Source: Candidatus Latescibacterota bacterium (GTDB taxonomy: Bacteria > Latescibacterota > UBA2968 > GCA-2709665). Taken from it: a stretch of 64,000 nucleotides of DNA. Shown one piece after another: positions 36,992-39,337 of this stretch. The notes under the pieces were generated by a model, which was given only the letters and a program-made list of their open reading frames with translations, was not told where the DNA came from and did not search any database. Both the position numbers and the translations under genes were made by a program. The stretch is from positions 4,608,001 to 4,672,000 of the forward strand of contig OZ241917.1 of assembly GCA_965203805.1 (NCBI GenBank), written 5' to 3'. Every line of letters starts with the position of its first letter. Positions within the stretch are counted from its first letter, which is position 1.

Positions 36992-36995
36992 GAAC

Positions 36996-37107
36996 AGCTA
37001 TCAGCAGTCGGCGGACCTCTCCCCCGGCCTGCCTGTCCCGTTGGAACGGCAGACAGGCCGAGTTCTGCTCGGCAGGCAGGCCCCCTCTCCCGGAGGGAAA
37101 GGGGGAG
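36996..37107. repeat. cluster of nested repeats: CAGCTAT heptamers, CCCCCTCTCC..GGGGGAG palindrome and CCTGCCTG..CAGGCAGG palindrome
   Basis: Read directly; related units occur elsewhere in the window. Confidence 0.6.
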
Positions 37108-37127
37108 GAAGAACAAAGGAGAATGAT

Positions 37128-38318
37128 ATGACAGTTCGTAAGGATGAATGGAAGCCAGGTCCTGAAACGATTGAATCGCTGTCCTCGCTGATCCGGTCGA
37201 AACCCAAAGAAGTGCGGTGGACCGAAATCGGCTGGGAGACGGACCTCTGGACGGCCCGGCGCCGCGCGGCCGCGGTGAACAGACCGATGTTCATCTGGGC
37301 GATGAACGGAAACCCGCTCGGCTGCGTCTGAAACAATGGCATCGCGGGCCGTGAGTCCGTTTTCTCCCATCCCGGTATTATCCGGATCCTCAACGAGTCC
37401 TACGTTTCCGTTGCGGACAACTGCAGCTACACCCAGACACAGAAAGACGCCAAGGGCGAATTCTTTCGCCTCGTGGCGGAACAGGGCCATTACGGCGGCG
37501 TCACCGAACCCACGGCCACCAGGCAGGGCCTGTACGCGTGTACCTCGGACGGCGAGTTGCTGGGGTCCATCAACACGCGGGATGCCGCCCCCCTACTGGA
37601 ACTGCTAGAGCAGAGCCTGGAGAGGTGGCGCAAGCGCCCGGCCGGGGGCGCGTCCGACGATATTCCCGAATCCTATCCCATCGATCCCAGACTCGGATGG
37701 TCCTATCCGGACAACGGCCTGGCGCTCAAAGTCACGGTCCGGGACCTCCCTCGGAATTCCAATGGCCTCGACGCCCGGCACAACATCGACTTCGCGTGGT
37801 TTACGGAAGAGGAGATCCGGTCGCTGGTGCCCGGGAACCCCCGTCCGGGGCAGACCTGGCGCGCGCCGGGCTTTTTCACCAGGCGTCTCGCCCTGCGCCA
37901 TTTCATCGACACGGTCCGCGGTCAATCGCCGGGTTGGCGGGAAGAAAACCTGAAGGAAGGAGAGATTCGCCTGACCGTCGAGGCCGTCGAAGCCGACCAC
38001 GTACGGTTCCGAATGGATGGATGCATCGAGCTCGAAGCCGAACCCACGTATGAAACCAATCCCCACAGCAAGCTTACGGTGGACAAGCCACGGGGCCTGA
38101 AACTGGACCTGTTCGGCCGCATCGGGTTCGAGCCGCGCCAGCGGCGCGTCAGCGCCTTCGACGCCGTCGCGACGGGCGACCGCTGGGGCTGTACCACGTA
38201 CAACGTGCGCTTCGACGATCCCGGCCCGGCGCCCATCGGTTTCGCGTTCGAACTCGCGTCGGACGACCCCATCGAACGCACCCCTCCCGCCTCCATCGGA
38301 CGGAATTACTTCGCCTGA
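37128..38318 (+). CDS. putative selenoprotein: thioredoxin-like N-terminal domain with C-V-U (Sec68, TGA 37329-37331), 396 aa
   Basis: AAGGAG RBS and ATG at 37128. ORFs 37041-37331 and 37473-38318 share a frame, separated only by one TGA and 47 sense codons (NNGIAGRESVFSHPGIIRILNESYVSVA...) that continue the thioredoxin fold. SECIS-like hairpin follows. Confidence 0.8.
37336..37370 (+). promoter_or_regulatory. candidate bacterial SECIS element
   Basis: ATGG..GCGGGC-CGTGA-GTCCGT..CCAT stem-loop; apical loop begins 19 nt after the UGA and has G at loop position 2. Confidence 0.55.
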
Positions 38319-38543: not shown

Positions 38544-39200
38544 TTAAATCTCAAGTAGAAAGTCATTATGGATGCTGAGATCCGATTGTATTGTAGAATG
38601 CCTGAATTTCACCATACAGACACGAAGACCTTCGGTCCTCGCTAATTTCATAGCTGGTACCATATCAGAATCACCTGTCGCAAGGATTACCGTTGAAACA
38701 AGGCGTTTCAGAGCCAAGGAGGTCATATCTATACCCATCATCATGTCCACGCCTTTTTGCACGATGTTTGGTCTTATATCCTTAGCACCTGGAATGGTTT
38801 GAGATTGGGAACTATTATTGTATACTTTTCGGAGGTAGCTATGGCTAAGTGACCAACCCCTTTGAATTAATCTACCCTTCCGAATAGCAATATGGTCAGT
38901 TTTTCCCAATTTTGCGATTAAATCCGTGTTGGCAGAATGCTGTGGCGTCTTCGCAAAATCAATAACATCGTTACTATCTAATGGGTTTATTGTTATAGAT
39001 TCCAGTGGGTCTGCCGTGTAGTAAAATATCCGGTACAGCTTAAAATCAGATCCGAACTTATGGCTTGCCTGCCTCACAATGTCGAAGCTCTCTTTCTTCA
39101 TTATCGGGTAATCTGGAAAACTGCCAAACTTGGTCTGCAGACACTTCTTAAACCACTCACCATCGATCAGAACAGCTATTCTTTCGAAAAGAGAATTCAT
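38544..39200 (-). CDS. NYN domain (LabA/DUF88, PIN-like fold) putative ribonuclease
   Basis: AVLIDG, YRIFYY, QKGVDMMMGIDM, LATGDSDMVPAMKLARTEG, H.DF; markedly AT-richer than the flanks. Confidence 0.9.
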   Translation of the reverse strand: MNSLFERIAVLIDGEWFKKCLQTKFGSFPDYPIMKKESFDIVRQASHKFGSDFKLYRIFYYTADPLESITINPLDSNDVIDFAKTPQHSANTDLIAKLGKTDHIAIRKGRLIQRGWSLSHSYLRKVYNNSSQSQTIPGAKDIRPNIVQKGVDMMMGIDMTSLALKRLVSTVILATGDSDMVPAMKLARTEGLRVCMVKFRHSTIQSDLSIHNDFLLEI

Positions 39201-39214
39201 CAGCATTTCCCACA

Positions 39215-39337
39215 ACAAAACGAATGCCCCCTGCGCCGCGTGCGTGCCTTTTCAAGCTCGCGAACTTGAAAATTCTGCACGTCTTTGGATGGGTAACGAA
39301 GCGCAGGGGGCCAGATTTCCTCAGTGGCTCCAAGTTG
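39215..39337 (-). ncRNA. candidate structured leader/antitoxin RNA upstream of the NYN gene
   Basis: Nested stems: GCCCCCTGCGC/GCGCAGGGGGC (11 bp), CGTGC/GCACG, TTTTCAAG/CTTGAAAA; followed on the - strand by a U-rich tract. Confidence 0.55.

Follow-up and report, generated by a model that had tools for sequence, protein, structure and literature searches.

In bacterial selenoprotein genes, the selenocysteine (Sec, U) insertion sequence (SECIS) has a set spacing after the UGA and a loop containing G/U. In the fdhF gene of Escherichia coli, it is a hairpin within the coding sequence (CDS), whose stem starts 11-12 nt past the UGA and whose apical loop is small and contains G and U. An adjacent conserved Cys usually marks a selenenylsulfide couple. 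In DUF255 proteins, the domain that follows the thioredoxin-like domain is an (alpha/alpha)6 barrel. SELENOF is a eukaryotic protein resident in the endoplasmic reticulum, with its SECIS in the 3'-untranslated region. The locus described here lies in a 64,000-nt stretch of the genome of a Candidatus Latescibacterota bacterium (assembly GCA_965203805.1, contig OZ241917.1, positions 4,608,001 to 4,672,000, forward strand), which is referred to as the window and supplies the coordinates below. The frame at 37128-38318 on the plus strand is, with a probability of roughly 0.88, a single gene encoding a 396-residue selenoprotein of an uncatalogued family, with Sec at residue 68 (Sec68) and a role as a Cys66/Sec68 oxidoreductase.

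Table 1 of a 2026 review of the prokaryotic selenoproteome contains 119 families/subfamilies (PMC13188914). The C-x-U entries in this review are rhodanese form 3, UshA-like, ferredoxin-thioredoxin reductase and thioredoxin-like Sec.1 (PF13192), and its Thioredoxin_7-type entry is Trx7/PDZ (NF041199), which has CxxU. In the table of the GOS paper, UshA-like is the only C-x-U family (PMC2398784). The nine new families presented for deep-Sep are all others than that of the window (PMC12013277), and BSepDB gathers previously reported families (PMC13326102). SELENOF/Sep15 combines a thioredoxin-like fold and a C-x-U redox motif (PMC9304195). No entry in Table 1 of the review fits the window protein, with model searches that covered its Pfam and NCBIfam entries (PMC13188914); the supplements of these papers could hold the family under another name. 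The literature on new bacterial, CxU-motif, Poribacteria or Latescibacter selenoproteins contains no description of the family, and NCBIfam release 20 and Pfam give no hits to the read-through protein at E <= 1. The first-pass annotation of the window had suggested that the family might be uncatalogued. By Pfam, NCBIfam and Table 1 of the review, it appears to be so.

The window protein shares several properties with Trx7/PDZ, Sec.1/Sec.2 (PF13192, CxU/UxC), SaoT, HUIPC and VPGU, namely an in-frame UGA, a downstream SECIS and Sec in a thioredoxin-like fold, and Sec.1 also has C-x-U. Unlike the window protein, none of the catalogued thioredoxin-fold selenoproteins is listed with a 210-residue beta domain, and no Pfam or NCBIfam model matches the window protein. 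The likeness to SELENOF, which also has C-x-U in a thioredoxin fold, is an analogy only. SELENOF has no detectable sequence relation to the window protein (no Pfam hit), has a different partner domain and is not among the top structural matches.

The frame is continuous from the ATG at 37128 to the TGA at 38316-38318 and yields 396 residues when the internal TGA is translated as U. The sole internal in-frame TGA is at 37329-37331, codon 68, in the motif G-C-V-U-N-N-G. The codons of Gly65-Cys66-Val67 occupy 37320-37328. The first-pass annotation had described a 67-codon ORF (open reading frame) that continues in frame past its TGA into a 281-aa ORF, and the translation bears this out. The 67-codon ORF is confirmed from the ATG at 37128, and the ORF list gives it as 37041..37331 from an upstream TTG. 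The 281-aa ORF, which begins with GTG (37473..38318), is the tail of the 396-residue frame. As the same annotation had stated, this GTG has no evident ribosome-binding site: when the sequence is read, there is no purine-rich stretch within 12 nt of 37473 and nothing Shine-Dalgarno-like. The single 396-aa protein that it proposed, with Sec68 in a C-x-U motif, agrees with both the translation and the column occupied by the TGA in homologues. This is almost certainly a genuine Sec-encoding gene. The features of the locus are as follows.

37116..37121, plus strand: Shine-Dalgarno sequence AAGGAG, 6 nt before the ATG (read from the sequence).
37128..38318, plus strand: predicted complete selenoprotein CDS, 396 codons and a TGA stop, with one internal Sec-UGA (translation, homologues, dN/dS).
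37212..37646, plus strand: predicted thioredoxin-fold domain, residues ~29-173, with C-V-U after strand beta-1 (MFIWAM) (model, fold matches).
37323..37325, plus strand: Cys66 codon TGC, likely resolving partner of Sec68 in an inferred redox role (homologue alignment).
37329..37331, plus strand: in-frame UGA, predicted selenocysteine 68 (same column across homologues).
37344..37360, plus strand: SECIS core, stem 37344-37349/37355-37360 and loop CGUGA 37350-37354 (consensus structure, covariation).
37680..38315, plus strand: predicted C-terminal beta-rich domain, residues 185-396 (model).
38316..38318, plus strand: true stop TGA, with no SECIS-like hairpin behind it (homologue stops).

The terminal stops of 20 homologous loci include TGA, TAA and TAG, with TGA in 8/20. 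No signal peptide is found in the window protein or in the other Sec forms.

Six-frame whole-genome searches with the read-through protein cover the own genome, 61 relatives and 168 genomes of the phylum. The gene is present in a single copy in the own genome, and matches are present in 42/61 relatives and 44/168 phylum genomes. The rows that span residue 68 contain exactly one internal stop and it is always TGA (47/47; 46 from the relatives and one from the phylum search). The four remaining rows are C-terminal fragments, three of them from the search of the 61 relatives. The full-frame homologues are 37-89% identical and match across residues 1-396. The TGA occupies a single alignment column in 20/20 and 30/30 loci, and the sequence around it in the 20-locus alignment is FIWAMNG[NH]P[LI]GCV-U-NNG[IV]. 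When one genome from each GTDB species is scanned, 129 related stretches are found, from which 80 loci are kept. In all 80, the TGA is aligned to residue 68 in the context NG[NDH]P[LIV][GA]C[VT]-TGA-NNG, at identities down to 35% and across five named phyla. The locus sets (20, 30, 47 rows and 80) overlap in genomes. A search of the tBLASTn type for TGA at residue 68 had been proposed as a check, and these rows and loci answer it in the affirmative.

Conservation extends to both sides of the TGA, as had been predicted. In 78 within-genus pairs, codons 1-67 have a ratio of nonsynonymous to synonymous substitution rates (dN/dS) of 0.22, and codons 69-393 have one of 0.23. The residues W31, W36, W41, P53, W57, G61, P63 and G65 upstream of the TGA are invariant. 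Cys66 is kept in 20/20 loci and in 79/80 loci, and the exception (L067) has Ala. By the titles of their metagenome-assembled genomes (MAGs), the 80 loci belong to Latescibacterota, Gemmatimonadota, Poribacteria, Chloroflexota (including Thermomicrobiales and Thermoflexus), Planctomycetota (including Pirellulaceae and Mariniblastus) and one Bacillota MAG. The retention of the TGA column across phyla contradicts an error or a strain-specific nonsense mutation, which had been named as a possible refutation.

Some genomes contain diverged paralogues, with three loci in G017 and two each in G029, G043, G054 and G056. These are ~40-64% identical to the query, and every copy has its own in-frame TGA.

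The locus was also compared with Logan contigs, which cannot show transcription, strand or level, from four public runs, namely a pair of sponge metagenomes, each from a different study, and a pair of RNA libraries that share a study. Among the rows printed, contigs that bridge the TGA have no difference at 37329-37331 (67 further rows are outside the printed set). Two RNA-library contigs bridge the TGA (37079-37755 and 37255-37438), which is weak evidence, as DNA can occur in such libraries. RNA-library cover is absent at 37756-38053 (X15), before 37255 and at 37909-38090 (both X19), and these parts are uninformative.

In the homologues, the UGA is followed by a 12-nt spacer (AAC AAY GGN RTN) and then by a hairpin with a 6-bp stem, whose 5-nt loop is CGUGN. 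In the window, the stem begins 12 nt after the UGA and the loop 18 nt after it. The RNAalifold consensus of 30 sequences contains exactly these six pairs, none of which is broken and two of which have compensatory changes. In a larger set of 81 sequences (79 distinct), 94.1% of cells are paired, compared to 25-49% for partners offset by 1-3 columns. Double-sided changes occur at 6/6 pairs (55 cells), and values as high as those observed arise in 0/500 column shuffles. The pairing is kept although the stem codes for varying amino acids (IAGRESV, VVGRALT, VVRRERT, VAGRAQA). The loop Arg codon is CGN throughout and CGU in >90%, and the alignment positions U33 and G34 are retained in at least 90%. 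The kept pairing under varying stem amino acids and the kept loop CGU both suggest constraint at the RNA level.

The stem-loop at 37336-37370, which the first-pass annotation had taken as the SECIS, is the minimum-free-energy fold of the window sequence. Only part of this assignment stands: the inner hairpin (37344-37360, 17 nt) is conserved and covaries, whereas the outer 4 bp are not conserved and lie outside the consensus structure. The hairpin resembles the fdhF-type SECIS in its location inside the CDS, its stem 12 nt after the UGA and its small loop with G and U. It differs in having a shorter stem of 6 conserved bp and a 5-nt CGUGN loop, and no conserved bulged U is seen. In the selD gene of the same genome, a hairpin whose loop is GGUC follows that gene's own in-frame TGA at a similar spacing.

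The presence of selA, selB, selC and selD had been proposed as another check, and all four are found in the own genome above curated cut-offs (SelA 477 bits, SelB 371, tRNA-Sec 73 and SelD 359). The genes for SelA, SelB and tRNA-Sec lie side by side on the minus strand at C1:1837983-1841270, outside the window. The selD gene, also outside the window at C1:2775468-2776391, is itself a selenoprotein gene with the motif TCG-U-AAK. SelA is present in 57/61 relatives and in 41/42 of the relatives that carry the selenoprotein gene. The one carrier that lacks SelA is represented by an 80%-complete assembly.

The whole-protein model (m0ff5076af273) has a predicted local distance difference test (pLDDT) of 80.6 and a predicted TM-score (pTM) of 0.81. 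Its secondary structure contains a beta-alpha-beta-alpha-beta-beta-alpha core in which the active site follows beta-1 (residues 54-59); the further helices and strands begin at residue 76. In VIA-align comparisons of residues 29-173, the best match is 3f9u_B, a DsbD-C-like domain (Z 12.6, root-mean-square deviation 2.1, 105 aligned residues). It is followed by 2lst (Thermus thioredoxin, Z 11.5), 3ph9 (AGR3, 11.1), 3ira (DUF255, 10.7), 2ju5 (DsbH, 9.9) and 7tkv (Brucella Thioredox_DsbH, 9.8). Dozens of thioredoxin-fold chains match over these residues at Z from 12.6 to 7, and Foldseek also matches 3f9u_B (E 4.2e-4, probability 1.00). In the model, residues 29-173 are a thioredoxin-like domain that is nearest to the DsbD-C/DUF255/AGR group, in which DUF255 covers the N-domain of YyaL/SPATA20 and AGR stands for AGR2/AGR3/ERp19.

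The sequence searches do not recover this relation. In Pfam, the read-through protein matches no family at E <= 1, including Thioredoxin_7 and Thioredox_DsbH, and the Cys-containing homologues P0214 and P0125 have no hits at E <= 0.01. The sequence-profile search of the PDB gives a chance hit only (FOXP3, E 0.46). The C-x-x-C of Thioredoxin_7/DUF255 is absent, with C-V-U in the window protein and C-x-C in Cys forms. The Thioredoxin_7/DUF255-type pattern noted in the first pass therefore holds at the level of the fold, where these are the nearest solved structures, but not at the level of sequence. Like DUF255 proteins, the window protein has its thioredoxin-like domain N-terminal to a larger second domain. 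Unlike Thioredoxin_7, DsbH and DUF255 proteins, it has a C-x-U motif, a longer loop between beta-1 and the motif, and no sequence match to these families. Its second domain is beta-rich, unlike the alpha/alpha barrel of DUF255 proteins.

Residues 185-396 (212 aa) were modelled alone from 43 sequences (m99d674454b63; pLDDT 95.4, pTM 0.90). This model contains long antiparallel strands and three short helices. The conserved motifs of the domain are RDLPR, HNxDxxW, HxxDxVRG, RWGxTxYNxRxDD and PAPxG. In the VIA search, the best Z is 6.5 and 0/48,161 chains reach Z >= 8. Foldseek gives no matches at E <= 0.001, Pfam gives no hit, and the nearest clusters in the ESM Atlas are unnamed hypothetical proteins. 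Outer-membrane barrels, PsbO and LmcA were considered as relatives and rejected; they have only a generic beta-sheet or barrel likeness (Z <= 6.5), and no fold is assigned. The modelled domain, which had been described from sequence as large and unrecognised, has no convincing relative in the PDB by VIA or Foldseek; novelty of the fold is not claimed.

A collection of 5.8 billion proteins contains 122 relatives of the window protein. All that carry a name are called "hypothetical protein", and precomputed Pfam domains are absent from the set. Among the 120 relatives listed, 118 cover <=82% of the query, i.e., they begin after the TGA. In one entry (P0061, a JGI call), the TGA is translated as W. 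The splitting of the protein by gene callers, which had been anticipated, is thus visible in the databases as truncated "hypothetical protein" entries. A profile of 13 sequences was searched against 1.84 billion representatives and finds 3,118 at E <= 0.001 and 466 at <= 1e-30. In the best 150 representatives, 136 start at profile position 74 or later and 14 cover the N-terminus.

These 14 and P0090 make up the 15 full-length non-Sec homologues that were inspected. Cys is present at the Sec column in six of them (P0090, P0125, P0161, P0214, P0188 and P0265). Their motifs are STC, QAC, MTC and three exact C-x-C (P0214, P0188 and P0265). The presence of some homologues with Cys aligned at residue 68 is as expected in the first pass. 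Residues other than Cys at this site, which had been named as grounds for refutation, occur in the other 9/15, only within a diverged, mostly secreted or kinase-fused branch. The full-length homologues with Cys at the Sec position are rarer and more distant than the Sec forms, and many distant forms have a signal peptide or a membrane anchor. One distant form continues into a PQQ-type beta-propeller and another into an EF-hand. On the sequences compared, the core branch is mostly Sec-dependent.

Four planctomycete Ser/Thr kinases (P0128, P0165, P0188 and P0195) contain the whole two-domain module without Sec. In these kinases, the module is the extracytoplasmic C-terminal part behind a transmembrane helix, and P0128 also has Kelch repeats.

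In the proposed mechanism, the hairpin at 37344-37360, 12 nt behind the UGA, would recruit SelB-GTP-Sec-tRNA(Sec), and the UGA at 37329-37331 would be read as Sec68 instead of as a stop. Cys66-Val67-Sec68 would lie in the loop after beta-1, near the place of CxxC in thioredoxin-fold enzymes. A reversible Cys66-Sec68 selenenylsulfide may then reduce or isomerise a disulfide or another oxidised sulfur or selenium species on a substrate, with the beta-rich C-terminal domain as the probable substrate-binding part. The assignment as a cytoplasmic Cys66/Sec68 thiol/selenol oxidoreductase carries odds that are even or slightly better.

Every gene caller treats the locus as something other than one gene, and the promoter/terminator scan speaks neither for nor against this treatment. 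Two separate genes, or one gene with a nonsense mutation or a sequencing error, are nevertheless extremely improbable here. The TGA column persists to 35% identity across phyla under equal selective constraint on both sides, and no start codon with a ribosome-binding site follows it. The thioredoxin fold is built from residues on both sides (54-59, and 76 on), and among the printed rows (67 being unprinted) the independent metagenome contigs across the TGA do not differ there. Decoding of the UGA as an ordinary amino acid, such as Trp, Cys or Arg through a near-cognate tRNA, or under a reassigned code, is hardly more probable. The W in P0061 would fit such decoding, but it is the gene caller's choice of code; the hairpin could in principle stimulate read-through, but its spacing and G/U loop match the bacterial SECIS model and the selD gene of the same genome. 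TGA is also a normal stop here, as it ends the window gene and 8/20 homologues, and the whole Sec machinery is present. Among the 15 non-TGA homologues inspected, some have Cys at this site and none has Trp.

The remaining alternative accepts a real selenoprotein but gives it a different role, in which Sec68/Cys66 binds or transfers a metal or metalloid (Hg, Cu, As) or Se/S, or the module is a ligand or redox sensor. Distant homologues that keep the two-domain scaffold and lose one or both Cys (9/15) are consistent with this, as are the four kinase-fused modules behind a transmembrane helix, which are built like sensor domains, and the fusions to a PQQ-type beta-propeller and an EF-hand. The C-terminal domain is rich in conserved Arg, Asp, His, Asn and Trp. 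C-x-U or C-U is also present in selenoproteins linked to metal or sulfur transfer in the review cited above, i.e., rhodanese form 3, UshA-like and ferredoxin-thioredoxin reductase (PMC13188914). However, Sec belongs to a thioredoxin fold and lies close to where the active site classically sits, the neighbouring Cys is kept in 79/80 Sec forms, and there are no recurrent metal-handling neighbours, with P-type ATPases upstream in only 2/46 loci. Binding, transfer or sensing is possible on this evidence but rather unlikely.

Several results weigh against a Cys66/Sec68 oxidoreductase or narrow its basis. Insertion of Sec at codon 68 is inferred from genetics and comparison. The 80 loci of the species-level scan were found via the peptide pattern PxFxWAMN beside the Sec site, which favours the Sec-type branch. 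The single-sequence fold energy of the hairpin region is ordinary (81 nt, z = -0.27; 80/200 shuffles fold as well). The motif is C-x-U instead of C-x-x-U, and residues 68-71 have pLDDT < 50 in the whole-protein model, so that its placement of Sec relative to the canonical CxxC is tentative. Among the nine inspected homologues without Cys at the Sec column, five keep the first Cys alone and the rest have none, which implies that the two-domain scaffold also works without redox chemistry. No partner recurs across phyla, in 14 loci inspected by eye and 46 upstream ORFs searched with Pfam. The neighbourhoods are not conserved, so the context supports no particular substrate.

In the window, an SDR gene lies upstream on the same strand and is followed by a 136-nt spacer that holds a dispersed repeat. 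The selenoprotein gene looks monocistronic. The Pfam families found in the 46 upstream ORFs are PALP and ScpB (3 each) and GFO_IDH_MocA, DinB_2, DRL_cat, RraB and P-type ATPase (2 each), and each is confined to one lineage. A PALP enzyme is directly upstream in one Latescibacterota-labelled lineage only (L096:3-914, L118:1822-2856 and L121:1891-2919; also L026, L036, L037 and L038). Its sequence resembles ACC deaminase/D-cysteine desulfhydrase. This adjacency may reflect nothing more than synteny, or it may point to the metabolism of S/Se amino acids.

The dispersed repeat is at 37027-37110. In a blastn-short search of the own genome, the spacer (36992-37127) has 49 hits, including itself. Metagenome contigs break and word depth spikes at the repeat, which looks like a REP/MITE-like element. 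Downstream of the gene, an ORF on the minus strand (38544-39218, 224 aa, TTG start) is by eye AT-richer than its surroundings. Beside a Pirellulaceae homologue, the minus-strand ORF L098:1380-2225 matches AhpC-TSA from profile position 50 only and then contains a GSHPx domain. This ORF may be another selenoprotein that has lost its N-terminus in the gene call because of a Sec-TGA.

Mis-annotation of selenoprotein genes is routine, and every public call found for this family is a truncated "hypothetical protein" or a mistranslation. With 3,118 representative clusters, this is a sizeable family whose catalytic residue and first 68 residues are missing from the databases. Recoding of this sort and this class of fold are both textbook knowledge, and no new principle is involved. 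The protein is a rare bacterial case of C-x-U in a thioredoxin fold that can be compared with SELENOF, and it points to a new beta domain. The covarying SECIS alignment could improve annotation models. There is a slightly better than even chance that the locus represents a broad new Sec family that carries out Se-dependent redox chemistry or sensing on a class of substrate new to selenium biology and is prominent in sponge, coral and marine bacteria. In this reading, the core branch uses Sec in all cases examined, a C-x-U thioredoxin fold is joined to a beta domain that lacks a solved structural relative, and the family is related to the extracytoplasmic sensor modules of planctomycete Ser/Thr kinases. 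As a predicted selenoprotein family, it adds to the prokaryotic selenoproteome and extends the use of selenium in Latescibacterota, Poribacteria, Chloroflexota and Planctomycetota.

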